NCBI GenBank assembly: GCA_023898465.1
Contig: CP060223.1
Coordinates: forward strand, 672,001 to 736,000
DNA length: 64,000 bases
Reading direction: 5' to 3'
DNA from: Candidatus Nomurabacteria bacterium
Lineage (GTDB): Bacteria > Patescibacteriota > Patescibacteriia > HK-STAS-PATE-3
Position numbers and translations under genes: made by a program. Below the pieces are notes generated by a model that saw only the letters and a program-made list of their open reading frames with translations, did no database searches and was not told where the DNA came from. Below are positions 4,492 to 62,726 of the stretch, one piece after another (the first letter of the stretch is position 1; each line of letters opens with the position of its first letter).

Positions 4492-6819
4492 TCAGTCTTT
4501 CGTCGCATCATTGATAATTTGATAGTGATTTGGTGCGATTTTTTCCATCATCTCAAATAATTCATTCACAATCTTTTTTGTCTCTGGGACGAGCGCTGGA
4601 TTAAAACCGGATCCAGTAATATGTGATTGATCATTTGTAAATTTGTATATGGCGTCTAACTTTTGTTCATCATACCCATTTTGTTTTAACTCCTCTATCT
4701 TTTTATATGATTTTTTTCCATTTGGAACACTGAACATTAAAAACGTATCCCAAACCTTCCTTGCTATATTAGGAATAGGATATGCCTTGGCGATAGAATC
4801 ATCTTGTTCATCGCGAAGATATTTAAGTAATTTAAAGAGATAGTGGTATTCACTTTCATATTCACAAAGCTCTTTATCCATTCTATCAATGTAGGCACAA
4901 CGAATGTTCGAGGGAAAATAATTTTTTATCATAAAGTACCCGGTATTATCTCTCCCGGCACCCCTCCGCCAATTGATCAAAAGTTTCAAGAAATCAAAAC
5001 TATGAGTAAAAATAAACACTTGCCCGCCGTCTTTTACTGCACCCTTCAAAAAACTAAAGGCTTGATAAAGAGAATTTGAATCGAGGCTAGATACAGGATC
5101 GTCAATGAGGATGATTCCATTTTGAAGATCAAAACTCTGATCTTCAAGATGCACCACAAAATATATAAAGGCAATAGCGGTCTTTTCACCTTCGCTTAAA
5201 TATTTTGCAGCAGAGTCATCGCGCATGATATTGTACCCCGAAACAACCTCTTTTTCATCACCATTCTCGCTAATAACCGTTTCGATGCGCGGAACAAATT
5301 TTAGCTCTCTGTGCCCCAAATAAGTTGCTATTTTTTCATTGATGACTTCACAGGCCTTATGTTTCGATGAGATTTTCGCTGTATTTTCTTCAATTCTTTT
5401 ATTTATCTCCTCAATTTCTTTTGTTAATGTGTCTATGTTTTTTGTTAGATTAGAAATATCTGATTCTATTTTTTTTATATCGTCAAAAATTGTACTCAGA
5501 TAGTGGAATTTTATTTTTTCCGCAGCCCTCTGTTTAACGGTATCAAAATCCGCAGTTCGTTTTTTGTGTTCATCAATAATGGCATTTACGCTATCAACAA
5601 CTTTATATAGACCGATACTGCTCAATTTTTTATCATGCTCTACCCTTTCGGTCGTCTTACTTTTCTTACTTTTAATTTTATCCGCAAGATTTGTAATATC
5701 GTTGACAAATTGTTGTTTAGCTAGTTCAAAATTAACTTTTTCTGTCTCTAGGTTTGTTTGTAGGTCTTTATAGAATCTCGTTTTCTCGGGAATTGTTATA
5801 TTTTGAATAACGGAGTAAAGCTTCCTTAATTTTTCAACAAGACTATCCAGGTCTTCTTTTAATTTTTTGTCTGCATTATTAAAATAAAGTGCCAATTGCT
5901 CTACTCTATCATTTGGAATATTTTGTAAACAGTATTCGCAAACATCTGAAGAATGTCTTTTGTGTAATTTTACCCCCTCTTCTACCCATTCTGAAATATC
6001 ATTATTTTCTGCAAGTCGATTAATAATCTCGGACTCAACTTTTTTGTTTAATACGTTTTCTGCCTCGGTATTAATGGAATTTACAATTTCAGAAATTTCG
6101 TAATTGTTTTGATCTATTTCGACTTTCGGAATAAATATTCTATCCAAAAATGGTAGAGATTCCTGCTTTAAAGAGATTAATATATTATTGAGCTCTACTT
6201 CTTCTAGCTCCACCTTCCTATTAATTTTAGAAAAATCACTTTCTGCCTGCGGCCTACGATAATCTCTTAATGCATTTCCTCCGATCGCAGCTCCTATGGT
6301 TTTTGCAATTTCGGTGAATTGACCATCGCGACTTGCTTTAAGCCGCTTATGGTCTTTTTTATAATCTGCCAATCTTGCAATTTTTCCTCTTTGCTTCGGA
6401 TCAGATGAATCGCCGTTGAGTAAAGTTCTATCTTTTTTAATTTGAACAGCGAGATCTTTATTTTCTTCACCGAGTAAAATTGAAATTGAATTTGCACGGC
6501 CTTCTATAAGCTCAATATTTCTTTCTATATAGTCTCTGTTGAAAACTCTGACTTTTGGAGGGAATGTGTCGTTTTGATCGTACCTATTTCCATTCTCGTC
6601 TTCAATTTCATACTCCAGATTTTCAATACTCACCCCGCTTAAAGCATCAAATAAACGGGAGAGTGTTGTTTTGCCGCTTCCATTCCAACCATACACTAAA
6701 TTAAGTTGCTTGAAATTTGGCAAGGTTGATCTAGATCGTATTCCTGAACCCCAGACATAATTAGAAAAAACAAGTCCGAGATTTTTTATTTTATTGATTC
6801 TTTGGATAGCATTACCCAT
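4492..6819 (-). CDS. RloC/PrrC-like ABC-type ATPase with Rad50-like CxxC zinc hook (putative anticodon nuclease / abortive-infection defence protein, AAA_13-like)
   Basis: 775 aa. Walker A LVYGWNGSGKTT near the N-terminus; about 450 aa of predicted coiled coil interrupted by CEYC (CxxC hook); ABC signature LSEGEK; Walker B/D-loop GIILIDDPVSSLD; H-loop FIFTHSFDF; about 170-aa C-terminal extra domain. The gene and its flanks (about 4270-7040) are markedly AT-rich (about 30-35% GC by eye) against about 50% neighbours. Confidence 0.6.
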   Translation of the reverse strand: MGNAIQRINKIKNLGLVFSNYVWGSGIRSRSTLPNFKQLNLVYGWNGSGKTTLSRLFDALSGVSIENLEYEIEDENGNRYDQNDTFPPKVRVFNRDYIERNIELIEGRANSISILLGEENKDLAVQIKKDRTLLNGDSSDPKQRGKIARLADYKKDHKRLKASRDGQFTEIAKTIGAAIGGNALRDYRRPQAESDFSKINRKVELEEVELNNILISLKQESLPFLDRIFIPKVEIDQNNYEISEIVNSINTEAENVLNKKVESEIINRLAENNDISEWVEEGVKLHKRHSSDVCEYCLQNIPNDRVEQLALYFNNADKKLKEDLDSLVEKLRKLYSVIQNITIPEKTRFYKDLQTNLETEKVNFELAKQQFVNDITNLADKIKSKKSKTTERVEHDKKLSSIGLYKVVDSVNAIIDEHKKRTADFDTVKQRAAEKIKFHYLSTIFDDIKKIESDISNLTKNIDTLTKEIEEINKRIEENTAKISSKHKACEVINEKIATYLGHRELKFVPRIETVISENGDEKEVVSGYNIMRDDSAAKYLSEGEKTAIAFIYFVVHLEDQSFDLQNGIILIDDPVSSLDSNSLYQAFSFLKGAVKDGGQVFIFTHSFDFLKLLINWRRGAGRDNTGYFMIKNYFPSNIRCAYIDRMDKELCEYESEYHYLFKLLKYLRDEQDDSIAKAYPIPNIARKVWDTFLMFSVPNGKKSYKKIEELKQNGYDEQKLDAIYKFTNDQSHITGSGFNPALVPETKKIVNELFEMMEKIAPNHYQIINDATKD

Positions 6820-37183: not shown

Positions 37184-38486
37184 GAAATTTCTCCTGGAAA
37201 AATGATGGTAGGTCTGCCAGTGCCACGCGTTCCTGTCCCATAGTATCGCGATCACGCACTGTTACTTTTTTATCTTCAGGTGTATCGAAATCAACTGTGA
37301 CGCAATATGGCGTGCCAATCTCATCCTGGCGTCGATAGCGACGACCAATTGAGGCGACTTCATCGTACGCGCACACAAAGTTCGATTTCAACGAGTCAAA
37401 TACTTCAGCAGCTACTTTGGTAAGTGGCTCTTTTTTTGACAATGGCAATATGGCGATTTTAATAGGAGCTAAGTCTTTATGCAGACGCAGCATGACTTCC
37501 TCCTCTTTATTACTCTCTGTAGTGGTTGTCCGTCCGCCCTCTACAACTTCGTAAGCATCGAGGAGAAAGGCTAAGGCAGAGCGCTCTACGCCGAAAGAAG
37601 GTTCAATAACGTATGGAGTAATCTTACCCTTCTCATCAGGGTATTCCATCCCATGTGCTTTCAAATCGTAATCAGTCCGGTTGGAAATACCAATTAACTC
37701 TCCCCAACCTTTGAAGGGCCAGTTATATTCCAGATCAACCGTTGCCTTGGCATAGTGGGCCAGCTCTTCTTTTTTCTGTTTGTACTCACGGACGCTGTTT
37801 TCCTTAATGCCCAGCGACTTAAACCAGGCAATGGATTCCTTCACCCAGTAGTCAAACCACTCCCCGTCTTCACCGGGTCGGACAAAAAACTCTAGCTCCA
37901 TTTGCTCAAATTCCCGTGAACGGAAAATAAAATTACCTGGGGTGATTTCGTTACGAAACGCTTTACCAATCTGCGCAATACCAAATGGTAATTTCATGCG
38001 CATGCTCTGCTGTACGGTTTCGAAGTTTACAAAAATGTTTTGAGCTGTTTCTGGACGTAGATACGCTGTAGAAGCATCGTCCTGCACCGGACCAACAAAG
38101 GTGCGAAACATAAGATTAAAGGCTCTTGCTTCTTCAAATTCTTTCTTGCCACAATTTGGGCAAGTCTCACTCATGTCTTCTTCTTTGAAACGCTGATGGC
38201 AAGATTTGCACTCTACTAGCTTGTCGCTAAATCCGCCCATGTGTCCGCTTTTTTGCCAAACAGTCGGGTTGGTCACAATGGCGCTGTCCAAACCAACCAC
38301 ATCGCGTCGCTCTTGAACAAAGTGTTTCCACCAGGCGCGCTTGATATTATTCTTTAGCTCAACCCCCAGCGGACCCCAATCCCAAAAGCCGCCCAGGCCA
38401 CCGTATTTTTCCGCAGTAGGAAAAATAAAACCACGGCGCTTTGCCAAAGATACCAACCGTTCCATCAAATCAGTTTGCGCGTTCAT
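37176..38486 (-). CDS. glyQS: Glycine--tRNA ligase (alpha2 dimeric type)
   Basis: MNAQTDLMERLVSLAKRRGFIFPTAEKYGGLGGFWDWGPLG is the canonical GlyQS N-terminus; class II motifs; Cys-rich insertion. Start at 38486 (alternative 38465); track ORF M1 at 38588 is unlikely. Confidence 0.9.
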   Translation of the reverse strand: MNAQTDLMERLVSLAKRRGFIFPTAEKYGGLGGFWDWGPLGVELKNNIKRAWWKHFVQERRDVVGLDSAIVTNPTVWQKSGHMGGFSDKLVECKSCHQRFKEEDMSETCPNCGKKEFEEARAFNLMFRTFVGPVQDDASTAYLRPETAQNIFVNFETVQQSMRMKLPFGIAQIGKAFRNEITPGNFIFRSREFEQMELEFFVRPGEDGEWFDYWVKESIAWFKSLGIKENSVREYKQKKEELAHYAKATVDLEYNWPFKGWGELIGISNRTDYDLKAHGMEYPDEKGKITPYVIEPSFGVERSALAFLLDAYEVVEGGRTTTTESNKEEEVMLRLHKDLAPIKIAILPLSKKEPLTKVAAEVFDSLKSNFVCAYDEVASIGRRYRRQDEIGTPYCVTVDFDTPEDKKVTVRDRDTMGQERVALADLPSFFQEKFHA

Positions 38487-38860
38487 ACATAAGGAGTATA
38501 GCCGATGCCTCCCTGCTTCGGCAAGGTTCAAATATTCTACCAGGCGTCCCTGCCTTCGCAAGGCTATAAATAGAAAGCCCCGCCTCATCTCAATACAAAG
38601 TGTTGTGATGGACGGGGCATGGGTTTAGGACGACGCATCGTCATCCTTCTTCTCTGGGTCGGGCTTCTCCTCCTCATCTTTTGGAGGATCACCACTCCCC
38701 CCGCTCGGTCGCCAATCCGTTGCAAAACGAACTGGCTCAATGAGCACTGGAGCTTCAGGTTCAGGCTCTTCCGGCGGCGGCTGTTCTGGAATTTTCATCA
38801 CGCGCTCCTTTTCGCCTCCATGGCATCAGCATCTTTCACCAAGTTGAAAAAGAAGTCAAT

Positions 38861-38921
38861 AAGAAAAAGCCTCGCCTCGCACTTCGCTCACCCAAGGGTG
38901 AAAGAAGATACGAGACGAGGC
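38861..38921 (-). terminator. Long-hairpin rho-independent terminator (repeat copy 1)
   Basis: Minus strand: GCCTCGTCTCG-…TCACCCTTGGGTGA…-CGAGGCGAGGC followed by TTTTTCTTATT. Near-identical to the copy at 40316..40376. Confidence 0.65.
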
Positions 38922-38939
38922 GCTAGCAATGTGCAATCC

Positions 38940-39494
38940 TCACAGCGCATCGAAGCTGATCAGTCGACCATCAGGACCAAAAACCCAAAGTCGACTCAGC
39001 CGCTCTAATGTTTGACGGAAGTTTTCCCTGTACTGCTCCAGCGTCGCCCGAACGATTTCCTGGCAATCCTCACCCTGAAGATTCGGGTCTGACTTCAGGG
39101 CAATGATATCGTCCCGGTAGCTTATCGCCGCCTGACGAAGCGCTGCAGCAATCCGACCATTCTGCTCGTGCACAAACTCCCTTCTCAATTGGCCTATGTA
39201 GGCCGCAGCCTGCTGCTCATAGTACTCGATGATCGCCCTGGACACTGCTTCAGCAACACTCAAACGAGTGGCGTAGTGAAGCTTGATCAGCTCCAGTGCT
39301 CTGGAATGGATTTGCCGGCGAAGCCTCCAGTCAAAACCAAAGTGTCCGAGACCTCGACAACGCTCCCTGGCTTCAGCTACTACCGCGTCAACATCCAGAT
39401 CGTTCAGCCCACTCTCCAAGGCCTGCGGCGAGGCACGTACCAAAGCAGATGAGTCAGTTGAGATAAACTCCCAGTTATCCTCTTCTCTACCCAT
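38940..39494 (-). CDS. Hypothetical protein (third gene of a 3-gene operon)
   Basis: Start set at MGREEDNWEF (ATG 39494) with GGAGG SD overlapping the stop of the upstream gene; track ORF extends to 39581. No family recognised. Confidence 0.5.
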   Translation of the reverse strand: MGREEDNWEFISTDSSALVRASPQALESGLNDLDVDAVVAEARERCRGLGHFGFDWRLRRQIHSRALELIKLHYATRLSVAEAVSRAIIEYYEQQAAAYIGQLRREFVHEQNGRIAAALRQAAISYRDDIIALKSDPNLQGEDCQEIVRATLEQYRENFRQTLERLSRLWVFGPDGRLISFDAL

Positions 39495-39498
39495 AGGT

Positions 39499-39750
39499 CT
39501 AACCTCCTGGCAGAAGGAGCTGGCCTGCACCAAGTCTCCGTATCTGCTGATCATAGGATTGAAGCTGTCGTTCACGCTCACCAGATGCTAGACCCAATTT
39601 CGTCAGCTCAGCATCGAGCTTTCTTCGCTCCTCAATCAGGACTTCGGCAATTCGCTGCCGCGCTTCCTTCTGTATTCCCTCAACTTCGTCTCGGGTATGT
39701 TGTACGATTGTCCGAATGGACGCTAAGACCTCACTCTCTTCCACGGGCAC
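39499..39750 (-). CDS. Hypothetical small coiled-coil protein
   Basis: 83 aa, Glu/Arg-rich helix; tightly coupled to flanking genes (3-4-nt gaps). Confidence 0.45.
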   Translation of the reverse strand: MPVEESEVLASIRTIVQHTRDEVEGIQKEARQRIAEVLIEERRKLDAELTKLGLASGERERQLQSYDQQIRRLGAGQLLLPGG

Positions 39751-39753
39751 ACC

Positions 39754-40275
39754 TCATGCTCGATTAATGTCATCACGTGCCGTACCAAATGCATCTCGAT
39801 GGCGCCGCCGCTCTTCCTCAGACAAAGAGCCTTCCAAGCTGGCGAGATTCCGCCAGCCTCGCCGCTTTGCCTCAGCCTCACTCAGCTCCACTTCTCGAGC
39901 AGTATTGTTCATTGCTCCTAGGACTCGAATTCTACTTTCCTCAGTAGAGCGTGTGGCTGCCGTCCTTTGATCCATGCTATCTATCATAGCTTGCAACTTT
40001 GCAGAAGTTCGCAAAGAGTCAGCACGGCGCTTCTCAACTGCATTCTGAAACCACACGCGCTCTTCTTCTTCCCTCTTCTGTATCCGGCTTACGGCTCCAA
40101 CAAAAAGAAGGACGAGAATGATTGGCCAGAACTTTGCTACCAGAAACGCAAACAACAGAAACACGATGATTCCTATGACTGCCATAAGGCACACTCCCTG
40201 TGTCACGGTGTAATAACCAAAAGAAGAAAGGGCATGCGCCCCTTGCGTATTTTCAAGGTCCTTTCCGTTCTTCAC
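39754..40275 (-). CDS. Hypothetical membrane protein with cytoplasmic Arg/Glu-rich coiled coil
   Basis: 173 aa; two TM helices (MAVIGIIVFLLFAFLVAKFWPIILVLLFVGAV); the track start at 40275 is a GTG codon; internal ATG (M31) is the alternative. Confidence 0.5.
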   Translation of the reverse strand: MKNGKDLENTQGAHALSSFGYYTVTQGVCLMAVIGIIVFLLFAFLVAKFWPIILVLLFVGAVSRIQKREEEERVWFQNAVEKRRADSLRTSAKLQAMIDSMDQRTAATRSTEESRIRVLGAMNNTAREVELSEAEAKRRGWRNLASLEGSLSEEERRRHRDAFGTARDDINRA

Positions 40276-40315
40276 TTTTTGTATAACTCTAATATCTTAG
40301 GAAGTCAATGGATAA

Positions 40316-40376
40316 GAAAAAGAGCCCCGCCTCGCACTTCGCTCACCCGAGGGTGAAAGAAGATACGAGACGGGGC
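40316..40376 (-). terminator. Long-hairpin rho-independent terminator (repeat copy 2)
   Basis: Minus strand: GCCCCGTCTCG-…TCACCCTCGGGTGA…-CGAGGCGGGGC + TCTTTTTCTTATCC. The T->C change in one arm is matched by A->G in the other relative to copy 1. Confidence 0.65.
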
Positions 40377-40407
40377 AAGGAGGCAGAGCTCGCCTGGTCG
40401 AAGATGA

Positions 40408-40959
40408 TCAGCCGAGCGTGGAGCTTCCGTGAAGCGTCTTCACGTCGATCTGCAGTGCCGCCGGGCCTCGAAAGTCACCGAGACGAAGTGACACTTCTTC
40501 TTGAACGTCGATCTGGTAGGAGCAGTCCATCTGGGTTTCATCACCCGCGTCCGGCAGGCGATCCCAGATGATGTACTGCGCCGTAGCATCCGGACCGGAT
40601 CGCGCAGTGACCTCCGGCACCGTGGTCCCATAGTGGCTGACGATGATGCTCTGAGTCCCCGGTTGTTCCGGCCGAGACGTCAGAACAGACTCGACCTGTA
40701 CCCACGGAGTCAGGGCGAAGTCGATCTGGACCTGATTGAAGCTGCTCTGATCCGAAGCCGGCAACAGAACAACCTCACCACCTGCGGAAGCGTAGAGACC
40801 GTCGGGAGCGATGGTGTTGTCGTCCATAGCGTACGTCGCCGCCATTTGAGACACACCCGGATCGTCCCCTCCGGCCGCGTAGATCGGCGGAGCGTGTGAA
40901 AGAGCGTAGCCGCACAGAACGATCAACGCGATCGCCCAGAGCGACAACTTCCTGAGCAT
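40408..40959 (-). CDS. Hypothetical secreted protein (signal peptide), GC-rich gene
   Basis: MLRKLSLWAIALIVLCGYALSHA signal peptide; GGAGG SD 7 nt upstream; no family recognised. Confidence 0.6.
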   Translation of the reverse strand: MLRKLSLWAIALIVLCGYALSHAPPIYAAGGDDPGVSQMAATYAMDDNTIAPDGLYASAGGEVVLLPASDQSSFNQVQIDFALTPWVQVESVLTSRPEQPGTQSIIVSHYGTTVPEVTARSGPDATAQYIIWDRLPDAGDETQMDCSYQIDVQEEVSLRLGDFRGPAALQIDVKTLHGSSTLG

Positions 40960-41092
40960 GTGGACCTCCTAAGGCGAAGTTCCATCTCGTAAGCAACGTT
41001 GCTACTCCCACAATACTTTTGTGGTGAGCATTCACATGGTAACTAAAAGCTTCTCGAGTAGTCAATAGAAGAAGATACACAGTGAATACTGC

Positions 41093-43807
41093 CTATAACT
41101 CAGGCGCCTGCTCGACTCGGATAACCCCACCAACCTCTAAAATCGCTTTATCACGACGACCTAACTGACCCTTTAAGAGATAGTCAGCTAATGCGTTATC
41201 AACTCGCTCTTGAATAACACGGCGCAAAGGTCGAGCACCAAAGACCGGATCAAATCCAATCTCAGCTAATTCCTGCACCGCAGCTTCAGTTGCTTCAAAA
41301 GTAATACCGCGACCCTCTAATTGTCGTTGCACCTTTGCAAGAAGTAGGCGCACGATCTGCACAATCTCATCCTTTTGCAATGGGCGGAATACGGTAATCT
41401 TATCAAAACGGTTGAGAAATTCTGGGCGATAATATTGATTCAGCACGGAGTTGATGAGCTCCTGCGTAATACCTTCAATCGTGGCCTTTTCTTGAATGCG
41501 TTTTTGAATCAGGTCTGAACCTGCGTTGGAGGTTGAAATGATAATCGTATTGGTGAAGTCGATCGTACGACCAATGCCATCAGTTAATCGGCCATCATCA
41601 AACACCTGCAGGAAAATATTCAACACATCAGGATGCGCCTTTTCCAATTCATCAAGCAAGACGAGAGAGAAGGGACTCTTGCGCACCGCTTCAGTTAAGT
41701 AACCGCCTACTGGACCCTGCGTGCCTTGATTACTACCGATCAGGCGAGAAATACTGCTCGGCTCCTGATACTCCGACATGTCGAGACGGATCATCGCATC
41801 CTCGGATCCAAAATACGCTTCGGCTAAAGTTTTTGCCAGCTCGGTTTTACCTACACCAGTCGGACCAAGGAAAAGGAAGGTGGCAATCGGTCGCTTTTGA
41901 TCACGCAATTCTGCTCGAGCACGACGGAGCGCTGCGGCAACTGCTTTGACTGCCTCATCCTGACCAATGATGCGCTGATGCATGGTTGATTCCAAGTTGA
42001 GTAACTTCTCAGACTCGGACTCATTCACTTTAGTTACTGCCACATGCGTTTTACTAGAAACAATCTTTGCCACATCTTCACCGTCTACAAAACTATTCTT
42101 ACCTTTGTGCTTATGAGCATCAACTGCAACTTCTTCCAGCAAGCTAATCGCTTTTTCCGGCAAGTAGCGATCGTGCATGTAGCGCTGTGAAAGGACTACG
42201 GTTTTTTCTAATGCATCGTAGGTAAAGAAAATGTGATGCTTATATTCAAGCGGACCGGCCTTCACCATAAGTATGCGCACCGCTCCATCAGTATCTACTT
42301 CCTGGCAATCAACTTTGGTAAAGGTGCTGGTGAGTGAAGATTGGTTTTCAATATAGCGCGTGTAGTCAATTGGATTAGTGGTGCCGATCACCTGCACTCG
42401 TCCGGTCTCCAGTGCCTGACTCAACACATCAGAGAGATCAAAACTCTCTCCACCGGCTGAAGAAATACCAACAATGTTTTGAATATTATCAATGAGTAAA
42501 ATGATATTTCCTGACTTCACCACTTCAGACAAAATCTGATTCAAGCGTCCTTCTAATTCTCCAGTTGACCCGGCATTACCAACCAGAGCTGCCACAGATA
42601 ATGAAACCAGGCGCTTATCTTTCAAAACATCCGGCACTTCCTCGGTCACCATGCGGCGAGCAATGCCATCGACAATCGCAGTCTTCCCTACGCCAGGATT
42701 ACCAACCAACATGGGACTGCCGCCTCGCTCCAAAACGCGAAACATTTCATCCAGCACTTCCTCACGTCCGACAGTCATCGGGACAGCGCCCCGTTGCGCT
42801 AAATCAGTTAAGTCATGGCTGTACTGATTCAGCATTCGAGTTTCTTGTGCCGTCATGGCCCGGTTCATACCACGCTTCGGTCGCCAAGCTGCCCGCTTAC
42901 GGAAACGCTTATACTGCTCGCACAAATCTTCCTCAATATGCGCCCAAGCCACAACGTGTCGCAGCTTGTTCTCATCTACTTCTAGGTCATAAAGAATATC
43001 CTGGGTGTGCGTTTCTGAAGTAGCTAAGGCGACCAAGACTTCCAGCACGCCAACTTGTTGACGCTTCGTTGCATAGGCTTCTCGATAGGCAGCGCAGAGT
43101 AGCTTTTTTGTTGAAGTGGAAAGATGCGGCTCCCCTGGCCAATCCTGTGGCATGCCAGTGAAAAGTTTCCCAATGCGTTGCTTCAATTGCTCGTACTGAA
43201 TATTTAAACGGGCAAAAAGTACAGCCGCTGTCCGCGTAGTTAACATTGCCGCTAAAATATGCGAGGGCCAAATTTCACGATGATTTAAATGATTCGCAAT
43301 ATCCCAAGCCTGCTGCAGCATGTGCTCTAACTCGTTGTCGAGCAAAGCTGGTAGGTCCTCTACTTTGTCGGCAAAATCTGCCTCGGAGATTTGCTCCAAG
43401 GACAATACCGTCTCCATCTCAGCTGGAGTCTGTCGCGTAATTTTCTTTCGCGGTTTTAACTCTCGCTCAATGCGAAAGTAGGCGTAACAGTCAGTTGCTA
43501 ATGAAATCCAAAAGATCAACATAGCTGGGCTGCGCAAATCCCAAAGGTCGAGCAGTGAAGCGCCGCCCTGAAGCAGTTGATACAACTCCCAAAAACCAAT
43601 GAGGAAACCCGCCAGACCAAAGAAGACTAGGAAACCGTTTATAAAGGCACGTAATCCTCGAGCAAACTTTTCGCCACTTACTTCGCTGCGACCAAATGTT
43701 TTATCCCAGTACAAAATCCGACTGCCAAACATCTCAGAGTAAGGCGCTGGTCGCTGGCCCTTTGGACTGGCCGGTGCTGGATTAGAAAAGCTGTCGGATG
43801 ATGGCAT
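41093..43807 (-). CDS. ClpA/B/C-family AAA+ chaperone ATPase with N-terminal 2-TM membrane anchor
   Basis: 904 aa. About 130-aa N-terminal extension with two hydrophobic helices; Clp_N repeats; AAA-1 (GNPGVGKTA, Walker B IILLIDNIQ); AAA-2 (GPTGVGKTE, LVLLDELEKAH, sensor motifs). No obvious long ClpB middle domain. Confidence 0.85.
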   Translation of the reverse strand: MPSSDSFSNPAPASPKGQRPAPYSEMFGSRILYWDKTFGRSEVSGEKFARGLRAFINGFLVFFGLAGFLIGFWELYQLLQGGASLLDLWDLRSPAMLIFWISLATDCYAYFRIERELKPRKKITRQTPAEMETVLSLEQISEADFADKVEDLPALLDNELEHMLQQAWDIANHLNHREIWPSHILAAMLTTRTAAVLFARLNIQYEQLKQRIGKLFTGMPQDWPGEPHLSTSTKKLLCAAYREAYATKRQQVGVLEVLVALATSETHTQDILYDLEVDENKLRHVVAWAHIEEDLCEQYKRFRKRAAWRPKRGMNRAMTAQETRMLNQYSHDLTDLAQRGAVPMTVGREEVLDEMFRVLERGGSPMLVGNPGVGKTAIVDGIARRMVTEEVPDVLKDKRLVSLSVAALVGNAGSTGELEGRLNQILSEVVKSGNIILLIDNIQNIVGISSAGGESFDLSDVLSQALETGRVQVIGTTNPIDYTRYIENQSSLTSTFTKVDCQEVDTDGAVRILMVKAGPLEYKHHIFFTYDALEKTVVLSQRYMHDRYLPEKAISLLEEVAVDAHKHKGKNSFVDGEDVAKIVSSKTHVAVTKVNESESEKLLNLESTMHQRIIGQDEAVKAVAAALRRARAELRDQKRPIATFLFLGPTGVGKTELAKTLAEAYFGSEDAMIRLDMSEYQEPSSISRLIGSNQGTQGPVGGYLTEAVRKSPFSLVLLDELEKAHPDVLNIFLQVFDDGRLTDGIGRTIDFTNTIIISTSNAGSDLIQKRIQEKATIEGITQELINSVLNQYYRPEFLNRFDKITVFRPLQKDEIVQIVRLLLAKVQRQLEGRGITFEATEAAVQELAEIGFDPVFGARPLRRVIQERVDNALADYLLKGQLGRRDKAILEVGGVIRVEQAPEL

Positions 43808-44189
43808 AGGTAATAATTGGTGGTGTGGCTAACCACACTATGACGAAAACGCTCATGATGAGGAACCAAAGCACAAAGACAAAGAGGCGTCCGACTAGGA
43901 CCACAATACGCAAGAAGAAACTAATAATACGACCGCTCTTGGTGTAGTCGCCGTACATTGGCGTGAACATGTTACGCAGCCAAATGCGTAACGATAACTG
44001 TTCAGCCCGGCCGCGCATCTGCGACAACCAGAAACGACCTAATTGCATGAGGCCACCGCTATACCACCAAAATGGAAAGCGAACAACGTCAAAAAGCAGC
44101 TCCTGGAATAAGAAGCTGAAGGAATATTGCGTCTGGCTTCGCGATCGATACATGGCTTGTGTTTTTCTTTTCACTTTTACTTTACGCAT
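43782..44189 (-). CDS. Hypothetical small membrane protein
   Basis: 135-aa ORF, 2-3 TM helices, overlaps the clpC-like start by 26 nt; start uncertain (M13 alternative). Confidence 0.4.
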   Translation of the reverse strand: MRKVKVKRKTQAMYRSRSQTQYSFSFLFQELLFDVVRFPFWWYSGGLMQLGRFWLSQMRGRAEQLSLRIWLRNMFTPMYGDYTKSGRIISFFLRIVVLVGRLFVFVLWFLIMSVFVIVWLATPPIITYAIIRQLF

Positions 44190-52534: not shown

Positions 52535-53047
52535 GTGACAGATGCACCTCATCCCCATTCAGAATCCCCAGATGATCCTCACTTCTGGATCAAGTTCTAC
52601 CCCCACCTCTCAGGCGCAGTCCAGTCTGTCTTGGAGCGAGTCTACCAACTCGGTCTGCCGCAACACCCAGGCATCATCCACGTTCTGTTCGTACACCGTG
52701 GTCAAGACCAGCCTCAGATCACCACGTTTCCAGGGCGGCGCCAAATCGATCTTCGGGTCGGCATGACCCTTCCGCCTTGTCGGGACGCTTTGAAGTCCGA
52801 CCCAGACAGGAAGTGGGCTACCAACATGTGGGACGGCGACCCCGAAGGCAAAATCGGTGCCGCAGCTCTCCGCATCACTCCGGCTGGCCACATCCTCGGT
52901 ATCGTAGGCGAGCATCTGATTCTTGAACACGCGCTGGCCATTCTCTACCTGGCGCTGGCTCGCAGCGGCTTGATCAGCGCTGACGAACTGACCAAGCTCG
53001 AAGTCGACGGCAACCTTACCTACATGGTCTTGCGCGCTCGTGACTAG
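52535..53047 (+). CDS. Hypothetical protein (paralog A of a tandem pair), GTG start
   Basis: 170 aa; GTG at 52535 with AAGGAAG SD; possible TTGACA-17-TACATT promoter at about 52447-52475; GC-rich. Confidence 0.5.
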   Translation: MTDAPHPHSESPDDPHFWIKFYPHLSGAVQSVLERVYQLGLPQHPGIIHVLFVHRGQDQPQITTFPGRRQIDLRVGMTLPPCRDALKSDPDRKWATNMWDGDPEGKIGAAALRITPAGHILGIVGEHLILEHALAILYLALARSGLISADELTKLEVDGNLTYMVLRARD

Positions 53048-53209
53048 CACAAATCCTCCCAACAAGACTCCTCATGCCCTGGGGAGTCTTTCTTTATCCT
53101 CGACGGACTTCGTATATGTAATAAATTGACACCTGCACTACAAGCGCTATACTGCGACCACACTTTTTGCACCTTCCTACAAACCGCGCCTGAAGAAACC
53201 AAGGAGTAC

Positions 53210-53719
53210 CGGATGAAATCTGAAGGAAGCGCTGGTCTTTGGCGGCAACTTACTCCGGAGCTGCACAAGGCTATCGCGAGTATTCACATCTATGCTGAGG
53301 ATCGTGATAGCAGCGGACCTAAGCCTGAAGCATGCCTTCTTGGACTGTCCATAGATGGCACCGTAGTGTACGCTCATGCCTGGCCACCCCGTGGTCCCAT
53401 CTCGCCGAACATGACTACGCACCTCAATACTCTGTGCGCCGTCCTGGCAAGGCGTCGCAGTAAAGGTTTCGCAATCGAAGCGGTTGACGACCGCATCGAT
53501 GCCTACACCGTGGCCGCTGCAGTGCGCATCGCTGGCACCAGCATGATCATCGGCTGCATCGGCAAGAACTTCTATCCCGAGGGTGGGCTGACTGTCCTCC
53601 TCACCGGAATGAAGAACGCGGGGATCATCGATGCGGAGACAGCAAGTCAAATCGCCACACAAGCGAAGTGCCGCTGGTACTACGAGATCAACGAGCTTCC
53701 AATCCCGCGAAGGATATAG
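53210..53719 (+). CDS. Hypothetical protein (paralog B of the tandem pair)
   Basis: Start at MKSEGSAGL (ATG 53210) with AAGGAG SD; the C-terminal about 90 aa align by eye to paralog A (AAALRITPAGHILGIVGEH ~ AAAVRIAGTSMIIGCIGKN; LAILYLALARSGLISADELTKL ~ LTVLLTGMKNAGIIDAETASQI). Confidence 0.5.
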   Translation, partial: RMKSEGSAGLWRQLTPELHKAIASIHIYAEDRDSSGPKPEACLLGLSIDGTVVYAHAWPPRGPISPNMTTHLNTLCAVLARRRSKGFAIEAVDDRIDAYTVAAAVRIAGTSMIIGCIGKNFYPEGGLTVLLTGMKNAGIIDAETASQIATQAKCRWYYEINELPIPRRI

Positions 53720-59777: not shown

Positions 59778-60180
59778 GGGGGATGCCCAATAATCGATCG
59801 ATCGTTCACAATCTGTGCAGGCAAGCCGGTCACCCAGGTCTCCCGTAACAGGCCCTGGAAAAAGCAAGTGTCAATTCATTTGCCAGCAAGGTAAAGAACT
59901 CCATTGCTAACGCAATGCAGTCACTCCAACTTGCGCCAGTTGTCGCGTAAAAACCGATAACCATCTATGCTTACGATGTCCTGAGTTGTTCGCATGGGTG
60001 CTACACTTATCAGGATAGGAACCTACCTTGTCTCGGGTTTGTTCCGAACTATTGAGACTAGGAAATAAATGATTTCGTTCGTTTCATACATTTGTTTCTG
60101 AAGCATTAAAGCGAACTAGGCTTGTAGAATGTACACGATTGTACGATGAGACGCGGGCGTGATACCCGCCATCTCCACCA
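59778..60180 (+). ncRNA. ssrA: tmRNA (ssrA), predicted
   Basis: About 400-nt ORF-free gap right after smpB. 5' GGGGAUG pairs with 3' CAUCUCC-A-CCA, giving a 7-bp acceptor stem with G3:U wobble (the Ala identity element) and encoded CCA. T-arm GCGGG-CGUGAUA-CCCGC sits just before it (same stem as E. coli, deviant loop). 5' AUCGAUCGUUCACAAUC is complementary to 3' GAUUGUACGAU (P2). Perfect 8-bp terminator hairpin immediately follows at 60182-60207. Candidate tag frame ends …LAPVVA-UAA. Confidence 0.6.
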
Positions 60181-62648: not shown

Positions 62649-62726
62649 TGGCGGGCCCGACCGGATTCGAACCGGCGATCTTCTCCGTGACAGGGAGACG
62701 TGTTAACCGGGCTACACCACGAGCCC
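62649..62726 (-). tRNA. tRNA-Asp (anticodon GUC)
   Basis: Minus strand: GGGCTCG-TG-GTGT-AGCCCGGTTA-ACAC-G-TCTCC-CTGTCAC-GGAGA-AGATC-GCCGG-TTCGAAT-CCGGT-CGGGCCC-G-CCA; clean cloverleaf, anticodon loop CUGUCAC, encoded CCA; TATACT -10-like element about 40 nt upstream. Confidence 0.9.

Follow-up and report, generated by a model that had tools for sequence, protein, structure and literature searches.

The block lying between a ClpC-like gene and GlyRS in the 64-kb window (the whole stretch of DNA analysed here, taken from a Candidatus Nomurabacteria MAG) is an ordinary strain-variable accessory islet and not core. At one fixed core-gene junction some strains carry 2.3 kb of cargo and another carries none, and this cargo appears both mosaic and younger than the flank, which makes the locus a clean, small-scale case of gene flux in the CPR, here in an ultra-small bacterium that has not been cultured; most accessory genes of this group have yet to be characterised. 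The findings give no hint of a new mechanism and do not touch on an open question; what they offer in practice is a corrected annotation (gene starts and a conserved 58-aa gene) and a polymorphic site that is trackable in metagenomes.

A polymorphic junction between ClpC and p58

The islet runs from the stop codon of the ClpC-like gene to the start of the gene p58 (38802..41092, minus strand), its 2.3 kb carrying four minus-strand ORFs which we refer to as sec183, tm143, cc81 and p184. In the source genome these genes are annotated as hypothetical proteins, with sec183, tm143 and p184 identical to NCBI USN53224, USN53223 and USN53221 (hypothetical protein, Candidatus Nomurabacteria bacterium) from a contig of 1.08 Mb, and the same genes were recovered by an independent gene caller on an identical Logan contig. 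The ClpC-like core gene (41093-43807, minus strand) forms one flank. Between the islet and GlyRS lies p58 (38625..38801, minus strand), a conserved acidic, proline-rich gene of 57-58 aa with a dN/dS of 0.049, which is outside the insert and adjoins ClpC in strain C. The insertion point is the 5' edge of p58, and the left junction in strain B retains the initial codons of this gene, GTGATGAAG. The preliminary description of this DNA had overlooked p58, which has a related terminator hairpin of its own (R3, below). The neighbours of the islet are ClpC, p135, TGT, GlyRS and an M16 peptidase; the gene table with its Pfam families showed no mobility gene such as an integrase or transposase over 10 kb on either side, and no tRNA target adjoins the islet, the nearest tRNA being 21 kb away.

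We compared the window (strain A) with two close strains that came from the members of a 90%-identity cluster, namely strain B, represented by contigs L088 and L089 (~91% identity), and strain C, represented by contig L092 (~85% nucleotide identity). A further cluster member, P0008, was an unrelated contig. In both strain B contigs the block stands next to ClpC and the contig breaks inside the repeat described below. The order in strain C is ClpC, a 62-nt spacer, p58, GlyRS and M16 with the block absent, the blastn alignment of L092 to the window covering ClpC as far as 41103 and resuming at 38801; this evidence is a single 3.4-kb short-read contig, with a small chance of an assembly skip across the repeats. 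Among more distant relatives, Parcubacteria BM519 is syntenic over p135-ClpC-GlyRS-M16-AI2E with just 134 nt from ClpC to GlyRS, and in another relative (L054) the order GlyRS-M16-AI2E is kept and the block is missing. When collections of genomes and metagenomes were scanned with GlyRS, the closest full-length relatives had 57% amino acid identity and partial matches 61-65%. The junction is therefore conserved and polymorphic, being occupied in strains A and B and empty in strain C, and the foreign or accessory character that had been ascribed to the block holds, as it is missing from a close relative and from distant syntenic relatives rather than being present in all.

The block had also been called GC-rich, and a windowed GC and codon-usage calculation showed that it does deviate, mainly through sec183. 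The excess is real, with 53.5% GC for 38802-41092 against 48.5% for the whole window, windows of block size having their highest GC in the 64 kb when centred on the islet (top 1.5%) and its dinucleotide signature ranking in the top 2.8%, but it is modest, and sec183 is the only clear outlier among the islet genes (60.5% GC, GC3 70.7%, z ~2.5; codon-usage z 6.6), its GC and GC3 being the highest in the window. The operon genes deviate mildly in composition (p184 54% GC, z 1.0; tm143 50% GC, z 0.2) and the codon usage of the small gene cc81 is native, with the operon as a whole standing at 52.6% GC.

Gene content and repeated hairpins of the two units

The layout proposed in the preliminary description, in which a gene for a presumed secreted protein stands beside an operon of three coupled genes, was confirmed and corresponds to two transcription units (X and Y respectively), each ending in a predicted hairpin terminator of ~75 nt with a TTGACT module. 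Unit X consists of sec183 (183 aa, 40408..40959, minus strand; NCBI hypothetical protein H6760_03540), an ORF recovered by the gene caller with AGGAGG 5 nt ahead of its ATG and with a candidate promoter-like site upstream, TTGACT-18-TACCAT (41036..41065, minus strand), from the consensus scan only. Its N-terminus is signal-peptide-like, consisting of MLRK, a 16-residue hydrophobic core and then PIYA/AG, and by inspection for a basic n-region, an h-region of 10-16 residues and small residues at -3 and -1, features like those of a Sec signal can be read in both strains (MLRK...PIYA/AG here and MARK...VVA/SAG in strain B). The mature part, of ~155 aa, is acidic with a pI of 4.05, its sequence pattern suggesting a high strand content, and sec183 is proposed to be a small acidic protein exported by a predicted Sec-type signal peptide. 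AF2 with a two-sequence alignment gave no usable model of sec183 (pLDDT 35), residues 7-21 being modelled as helix.

Unit Y begins with a non-coding 5' leader (40186..40275, minus strand) in which strains A and B differ by single-base indels that break the frame and which has a small conserved hairpin at 40227-40244; the NCBI (PGAP) call for tm143, of 173 aa, takes in this leader. As we define it, tm143 (143 aa, 39754..40185, minus strand) opens with a hydrophobic stretch of 33 residues and continues in a helical part of 110 aa that is basic and highly charged (pI 9.9). It had been taken for a protein with two transmembrane segments, and a hydrophobic segment is indeed present here, but it is strain-specific and the anchor is not conserved in strain B, whose ortholog has a hydrophobic N-terminus of just 15 aa (Kyte-Doolittle 19-residue score of 1.0 vs 2.7 here). 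The second gene, cc81 (39499..39744, minus strand), encodes a helical protein of 81 aa rather than the 83 aa originally given, starting from a GTG at 39744, 9 nt past the tm143 stop, the upstream GTG at 39750 being GCG in strain B. The coiled coils initially read into these proteins found no support as classical ones, heptad periodicity not being significant in a crude test. The third gene, p184 (184 aa, 38940..39494, minus strand), is an ORF also recovered by the gene caller, and its product is modelled as ~30 disordered acidic residues, a four-helix bundle and a short C-terminal hairpin (pLDDT 70). Translational coupling of the three genes is real, judging by the short gaps and the positions of the Shine-Dalgarno sites, as a GAGG overlaps the tm143 stop codon, a GGAGG lies within the 3' end of cc81 and only 4 nt separate the cc81 stop from the p184 ATG; the Shine-Dalgarno spacing is right and is conserved in strain B. 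The block proteins have no paralogs elsewhere in the window or among themselves.

The two units end in copies of one repeat, R1 (40301..40376, minus strand) and R2 (38852..38921, minus strand), whose 44-nt core occurs exactly twice with 0 occurrences expected by chance and which extends to 58-76 nt at 88-93% identity. R1 comprises a 23-bp hairpin (40324-40376; -42.2 kcal/mol, z -7.8), the U-rich tract UCUUUUUCUU and TTGACT at 40303-40308, and R2 a 23-bp hairpin (38869-38921; -38.2 kcal/mol, z -6.2), the U tract UUUUUCUU and TTGACT at 38854-38859, with a C:G to U:A compensatory difference in R1 relative to R2. The p58 terminator hairpin R3 (38577..38618, minus strand; -23 kcal/mol, z -3.6), followed by UUUCUAUUU, has the stem base GCCCCGTC...GAGGCGGGGCTTT in common with R1 and R2, this stem motif occurring exactly three times in the 64 kb, always at this locus, and R3 recurs in strain C, where it shows compensatory changes. 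All three combine a stable GC-rich hairpin with a U-rich tract 3' of a stop codon, as intrinsic terminators do, and are predicted terminators. R2 is the predicted terminator of the operon. R1 probably acts as the terminator of sec183 and as the source of the -35 element of the operon promoter, for which we read a candidate, TTGACT-17-TATACA (40280..40308, minus strand), from the sequence; it is conserved in strain B, and is absent from the consensus-scan output because its second hexamer ends in A. There are no further copies of the repeat in the 64-kb window, an Rfam E-value scan of 38400-41200 gave no match and the repeat was not found in the viral contigs searched. The spacers of strains B and C are homologous to the repeat, and the module is related to the ancestral spacer. 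Repeat terminators had been thought to delimit the whole block; the repeats are real, but they bracket the three-gene operon only and there is no hairpin on the ClpC side.

Divergence between the strains and searches for relatives

Between strains A and B the operon genes show dN/dS values of 0.06-0.27 indicative of purifying selection (0.06-0.18 for the C-terminal part of tm143, 0.08 for cc81 and 0.27 for p184). Their dS is 0.12-0.15 vs 0.445-0.47 for ClpC and 0.28 for p135 in the same strain pair (Fisher p ~1e-8), a contrast that covers one flank (p135 and ClpC, ~2.4 kb compared). As the operon dS is about threefold below that of the flanking ClpC, a recent exchange of the islet operon between strains is suggested. 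Two patches are far more diverged, one comprising the predicted signal peptide and the N-terminal mature part of sec183, with 29 aa missing in strain B, and the other the N-terminal half of tm143 (dS 1.44); since these adjoin near-identical stretches (95-96% identity) the alleles are mosaic. The strain B homolog of sec183 is 52% identical overall (BLASTP), dS being 0.7-2.3 in the variable part, and the C-terminal 58 aa have 96% nucleotide identity and a dN/dS of ~0.9 that is based on 8 substitutions only. The C-terminal 48 aa of tm143 are nearly invariant. In the variable patches dN/dS is 0.26-0.5, and not >1.

Searches of Pfam, NCBIfam, PHROGs and PADLOC with the four proteins and p58, including the strain B versions, gave nothing below E 0.01. 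Word-indexed homolog searches with p184, tm143 and sec183 returned only the proteins themselves and their strain B orthologs, and an exhaustive phmmer search with p184 of 1.84 billion representatives returned one match, the strain B ortholog, so that no homologs of the four islet proteins were found outside strains A and B (exhaustively for p184). No PDB sequence match fell below E 0.13, no function came out of the fold searches, and the literature yielded nothing specific to this islet. The earlier statement that no family is recognisable is upheld by the family and homolog searches, and as far as sequence comparison reaches the four proteins are new families without detectable relatives beyond one sister strain. 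The resemblance to Psp-like or toxin/immunity modules noted at the same time was not borne out, there being no PspA/B/C, toxin, antitoxin or defence match at E <= 1 except a chance-level Cas7, which was the single PADLOC match (Cas7_IIId to cc81, E 0.016, from 5027 models).

The block shares with flexible genomic islets its presence or absence at a fixed core-gene junction, an atypical composition, flanking direct repeats (R1 and R2, to which the spacer of the empty site is homologous), signs of recent exchange, mosaic alleles and a secreted or membrane-associated cargo. It differs in being only 2.3 kb long, in having no integrase, tRNA target or recognisable cargo family, and in that the bracketing repeat is a terminator-promoter module derived from the ancestral spacer. 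Other known systems were considered and rejected. A holin or lysis cassette does not fit a hydrophobic segment that is not conserved, with no lytic enzyme domain and no PHROG match. The target of a diversity-generating retroelement (DGR) does not fit either, as there is no template/variable repeat pair in 36-45 kb and no reverse transcriptase in the gene table, and it is the N-terminal part that varies, its synonymous change being saturated.

Explanations for the islet

The best overall explanation, to which we give a probability of about 55%, is a strain-variable accessory islet of two units that encodes a helical complex and has a dispensable envelope function. The islet would fill what is otherwise the 62-nt spacer between ClpC and p58, upstream of GlyRS. 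Unit X would be a monocistronic gene of foreign composition for a small acidic protein with predicted Sec export, and unit Y a coupled three-gene operon whose products would be tm143, basic, charged and helical with a hydrophobic N-terminal anchor that varies between strains, the 81-aa helical cc81 and p184, a putative helical bundle of 184 aa. The conserved C-terminal 48 aa of tm143 may form a cytoplasmic helical complex with cc81 and p184, and the variable N-terminus of tm143 would tether this complex to the membrane, an idea weakened by the anchor not being conserved in strain B. Gain and loss would likely proceed by recombination between the direct repeats. The function would be a dispensable one at the cell envelope under diversifying pressure (for example host-cell or phage contact) and not housekeeping, and if this envelope-interface reading is true the four proteins become candidates for a part in the contact of these episymbionts with hosts or phages. 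We offer an envelope-associated accessory module as a low-confidence guess that found no support in homology or fold. The two units, each with a promoter and a terminator of its own and with a different GC content, may have unrelated functions.

A presence/absence pattern among close strains together with recent exchange is typical of anti-phage defence, abortive-infection or toxin/immunity cargo, in which tm143 would be a membrane-acting effector restrained by its helical partners or sec183 a secreted toxin with tm143 as its co-varying membrane immunity protein. The variable patches affect sec183, the putatively exported protein, and that half of tm143 which is nearer the membrane, as would be expected of co-evolving partners, and another foreign defence-like gene (an AAA_13 ATPase, 34% GC) is present in the window. 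However, known anti-phage systems in PADLOC gave no component match beyond the chance-level Cas7_IIId, no toxin, antitoxin or nuclease domain was found, in strain B the hydrophobic segment of tm143 is down to 15 residues, sec183 and the operon form distinct transcription units of different GC and dN/dS in the variable patches does not exceed 1, so that we consider such a module possible but doubtful.

With regard to the direction of change, strain C could have lost the islet by recombination between the repeats. The spacer of the empty site is homologous to the direct repeats (R0, R1 and R2), between which a deletion would recreate the strain C state exactly, and no mobility genes are present; all of this would suit a block that was ancestral in the clade and belongs to a dispensable or decaying part of the core. 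The block is missing from distant syntenic relatives too, however, the GC and codon usage of sec183 are clearly foreign, the four proteins have no homologs outside strains A and B and a dS below that of the flank argues for recent lateral spread; an ancestral origin seems to us rather improbable.

The spacer between ClpC and p58 might also be a cassette-capture site not described before, an idea we hold to be quite unlikely. Each unit of one to a few genes may then arrive with a long hairpin and TTGACT module and the GTGATGAA junction motif, and movement may be due to a recombinase encoded elsewhere or to hairpin-directed recombination. The cargo would perhaps also be a new secreted-effector/membrane-immunity pair, which if true would explain where in sec183 and tm143 the variable patches lie. 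Successive units ending in an imperfect palindrome of ~50-75 nt, in one orientation and at one site, with a short motif, GTGATGAA, recurring at the junctions, are features of integron cassettes as well. Unlike those, the units here have candidate promoters of their own, and behind the hairpin comes a U tract as in an ordinary intrinsic terminator. An integron with attC sites was rejected, as no RYYYAAC or GTTRRRY core sites are present on either strand in or around R1, R2 and R3, and no IntI tyrosine recombinase with attI adjoins the islet, whose neighbours are those listed above.

A sigma/anti-sigma-like module, in which p184 would be a divergent ECF-type sigma domain, cc81 a NepR-like inhibitor and tm143 a membrane-anchored partner, is very unlikely. 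The modelled helices of p184 bear a weak fold resemblance to sigma region 2, and, as in ECF sigma systems with NepR or a membrane anti-sigma factor, p184 is co-transcribed in a small operon with genes for a membrane-associated protein and a short helical one. There is no sequence-family match and no region-4 domain in p184, and its likeness to region 2, taken from a single-sequence model, is of a generic helical kind. We give no more credence to a membrane-stress module in which a small membrane protein and PspA-like coiled-coil partners would stabilise the membrane. The architectural resemblance is loose, in that a small protein whose N-terminus is hydrophobic shares its operon with soluble helical proteins. 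No PspA_IM30, PspB or PspC matched at E <= 1 in Pfam and NCBIfam for the proteins of both strains, and the block is not a core gene set; heptad periodicity was not significant in the crude test, the p184 model is a compact bundle and not a long hairpin, and a core stress role is at odds with presence and absence among strains.

That the ORFs are chance open frames and not genes is largely refuted: GC-rich DNA yields long random ORFs, several overlapping ORFs of 100-130 aa do occur on the other strand and dN/dS in the conserved C-terminus of sec183 is ~0.9, from just 8 substitutions, but the operon genes are under purifying selection, the Shine-Dalgarno sites are rightly spaced in both strains, GC1 exceeds GC2 in the pattern typical of coding sequence, and the sec183 frame and predicted signal peptide survive 48% amino acid divergence and a 29-codon in-frame deletion.

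The accessory islet and its genes

The block between the ClpC-like gene and p58 (38802-41092, 2291 nt) is an accessory islet of small size that comprises two autonomous transcription units, and its genes are real. It lies in a minus-strand series that starts with the ClpC-like AAA+ gene (41093-43807) and runs through sec183, encoding a protein with a putative signal peptide (40408-40959), the repeat copy R1, the operon genes tm143 (39754-40185), cc81 (a small helical gene of 81 aa starting at GTG 39744) and p184 (38940-39494), the other repeat copy, R2, and the 58-aa ORF p58 (38625-38801), to end with the dimeric-type glycyl-tRNA synthetase (GlyRS). An independent gene caller returned the same genes on an identical 42-kb Logan contig (products of 183, 143, 81, 184 and 57 aa), and NCBI annotates these products as 'hypothetical protein' (locus tags H6760_03525 to 03540, Candidatus Nomurabacteria MAG, 1.08-Mb contig).

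The coupling of the operon proposed in the preliminary description is confirmed: one SD motif, GAGG, overlaps the stop codon of tm143, and another, GGAGG, lies within the last codons of cc81, whose stop is 4 nt from the p184 ATG. The 83 aa given there for the middle gene becomes 81 aa, and the upstream GTG taken as its start is GCG in strain B, a relative that carries the block. In strain B (L089 553-822) the stop codon of this gene is replaced by CAG. The product there has 89 aa, with a 20-nt overlap of the p184 start, which shows that cc81 is unconstrained in its C-terminal tail. Out-of-frame single-base indels separate strain A (the genome of the window) from strain B in the 90 nt 5' of the tm143 ATG (40185), which are thus a non-coding leader; the NCBI call of 173 aa for tm143, which adds these 90 nt, is too long.

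The block was described as GC-rich and is so (53.5% versus 48.5% for the window), block-sized windows centred on it being the GC maximum of all 64 kb (top 1.5%), and its dinucleotide signature distance falls in the top 2.8%. Composition and codon usage do set it apart, yet the GC excess stems mainly from sec183 (GC 60.5%, GC3 70.7%, each about 2.5 sd above the window's 58 ORFs), whose codon-usage deviation (z 6.6) is second in the window, behind one AT-rich foreign gene. Deviation is mild in p184 (GC 54%, codon z 4.5), tm143 has a GC of 50% and a codon z of 2.4, and the codon usage of cc81 is native (z 0.7).

Repeats and junctions

Copies of a putative terminator-promoter module, which derives from the ancestral spacer, flank the islet. 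The 44-nt core of the module occurs exactly twice (0 expected by chance), with similarity between R1 and R2 reaching 58-76 nt at 88-93% identity. Both copies form hairpins of 23 bp (R1, -42.2 kcal/mol, z -7.8; R2, -38.2 kcal/mol, z -6.2) that differ at one stem position by a compensatory change, C:G versus U:A, and have a U-rich tract on their 3' side, with TTGACT after it. This arrangement suggests that R1 would both end the sec183 unit and supply the -35 box of the operon, whose candidate promoter (TTGACT-17-TATACA) is kept in strain B. R3, a third hairpin (-23 kcal/mol, z -3.6), comes after p58 and shares with R1 and R2 the stem base GCCCCGTC...GAGGCGGGGCTTT, a motif with exactly three occurrences in the 64 kb, each of them here. 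No Rfam family matched the repeat, it was not found in viral contigs, and integron core sites were not found in it.

The 62-nt spacer after ClpC in strain C, a block-free relative, and the strain B sequence 3' of the ClpC stop are mutually homologous and also homologous to both repeat ends, TCGT[A/T]TCTT..TC and GGCGAGG(G)CT..TTGACTT, with the hairpin missing. The strain B spacer takes in the opening p58 codons (GTGATGAAG) before it diverges into block sequence. At its right end, the block in the window reads ...GTGATGAAA, followed by the remainder of p58. These homologies give a layout of ClpC-R0-[sec183]-R1-[operon]-R2-p58, R0 being the copy after the ClpC stop, against an empty site of ClpC-R0-p58. 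Recombination among the direct repeats R0, R1 and R2 could account for loss and gain of the block alike. Neither an integrase nor a transposase occurs within 10 kb, and 21 kb separate the block from the nearest tRNA.

Distribution and exchange among strains

Scans of genome and metagenome collections with GlyRS as the query gave no full-length relative above 57% identity and a few partial matches at 61-65%. The best match, Parcubacteria BM519, keeps the order p135-ClpC-GlyRS-M16-AI2E-methylase, p135 being the 135-aa gene that precedes ClpC; its ClpC-GlyRS gap of only 134 nt contains neither the block nor p58. A second, partly syntenic contig (L054) is also without the block. Closer strains were obtained through 90%-identity cluster members. 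Strain C (L092; about 85% identity in ClpC and GlyRS, dS 0.6-2) has the order ClpC stop, 62 nt, p58, terminator, GlyRS, M16 and lacks sec183, tm143, cc81 and p184; conservation in all relatives is thereby contradicted and islet status supported. It keeps p58 with a dN/dS of 0.049, which marks this acidic, proline-rich product of 57-58 aa between islet and GlyRS as a real small gene. Strain B (L088, L089, L093; about 91% identity in p135 and ClpC) has, beside ClpC, sec183, repeat, tm143, cc81, p184 and repeat, both block-carrying contigs ending inside the repeat.

Between strains A and B purifying selection acts on p184 (dN/dS 0.27, dS 0.12), cc81 (0.08, 0.14) and the C-terminal part of tm143 (0.06-0.18, 0.15), with flanking values of 0.02-0.04 and 0.445-0.47 for ClpC and 0.06 and 0.28 for p135. 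The lower synonymous divergence of the operon (Fisher p ~1e-8 against ClpC) indicates that the conserved parts of the block are younger in common ancestry than the adjacent ClpC, and points to recent lateral exchange of the block between lineages, in a comparison that covers one flank only. The alleles are mosaic, with two patches in the block that diverge much more strongly than its core. One patch covers the ClpC-sec183 spacer and, in sec183, the putative signal peptide together with the N-terminal two-thirds (dS 0.7-2.3, dN/dS 0.26-0.5, with a 29-codon deletion in strain B), whereas the C-terminal 58 codons are 96% identical; the other is the N-terminal half of tm143 (dS 1.44, dN/dS 0.47). 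As the hydrophobic N-terminus of tm143 spans only 15 residues in strain B versus 33 in strain A (Kyte-Doolittle 19-residue scores of 1.0 and 2.7), a two-TM hairpin is not a conserved property. A crude heptad test gave no support for classical coiled coils. The constrained parts are cc81, p184 and the last 48 aa of tm143, from which we infer that these may function jointly.

Orphan proteins and possible function

Searches of Pfam, NCBIfam, PHROGs and PADLOC gave no match below E 0.01 for the strain A or B proteins, in keeping with the earlier statement that no family is recognisable. Among 5.8 billion clusters only the proteins themselves and one strain B ortholog each of p184 (93% identity) and sec183 (52%) were found, phmmer, run exhaustively with p184 on 1.84 billion representatives, returned the strain B ortholog alone, and PDB sequence searches were empty. 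The single-sequence AF2 model of p184 (pLDDT 70, pTM 0.49) comprises a disordered stretch of about 30 residues and helices at 35-52, 56-72, 80-134 and 142-167, with no Foldseek hit below E 0.6 in PDB and BFVD; for sec183, AF2 on a two-sequence alignment reached a pLDDT of only 35.

Strain-variable orphan-gene islets are a familiar kind, to which the block adds one more example. Very tentatively, its function may be a dispensable one at the cell envelope, where an exported acidic sec183 (mature pI 4.05) and a basic, membrane-tethered cytoplasmic helical complex would take part in an interaction under diversifying pressure. A defence or toxin/immunity module is a live alternative. The preliminary description is largely right in its observation, and its functional analogies are unsupported. 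Loss by deletion in strain C is less likely than insertion in strains A and B, given the foreign composition of the block, its lack of homologs elsewhere and its low dS. At least one defining test went against each of the Psp-like, sigma/anti-sigma, integron, DGR and holin readings.

Among the neighbours, the ClpC-like protein carries an N-terminal extension of ~160 aa with two hydrophobic stretches before its Clp_N domain, and p135 (43782-44189, minus strand), a hydrophobic protein, overlaps and precedes its gene. In BM519, as in several contigs of Dehalococcoidia (L009, L010, L026, L035, L037), ClpC lies immediately 5' of GlyRS. The 470-aa GlyRS ORF is over-extended (38483-38588, minus strand), homologs aligning from ATG 38483 and NCBI giving 436 aa, and the over-extension holds a promoter-like site, TTGCGA-16-TAGAAT with an extended -10 (38534-38561).

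Elsewhere in the window, a 775-aa gene (4492-6819, minus strand; GC 34%, z -3.3) shows the strongest codon-usage deviation of all by a wide margin (z 15); its product is a full-length AAA_13 (PF13166) ATPase (E 7e-118), and it looks like horizontally acquired defence-type cargo. Two plus-strand ORFs of 170 and 197 aa (52535-53719; GC 59% and 56%), in a gene order otherwise almost all minus, had no Pfam match and may form another orphan islet rich in GC; on the minus strand, ORFs of about the same length overlap them. The only RNA genes found were a tmRNA (59779-60180, plus strand; Rfam 74 bits) and a tRNA-Asp (62649-62726, minus strand).
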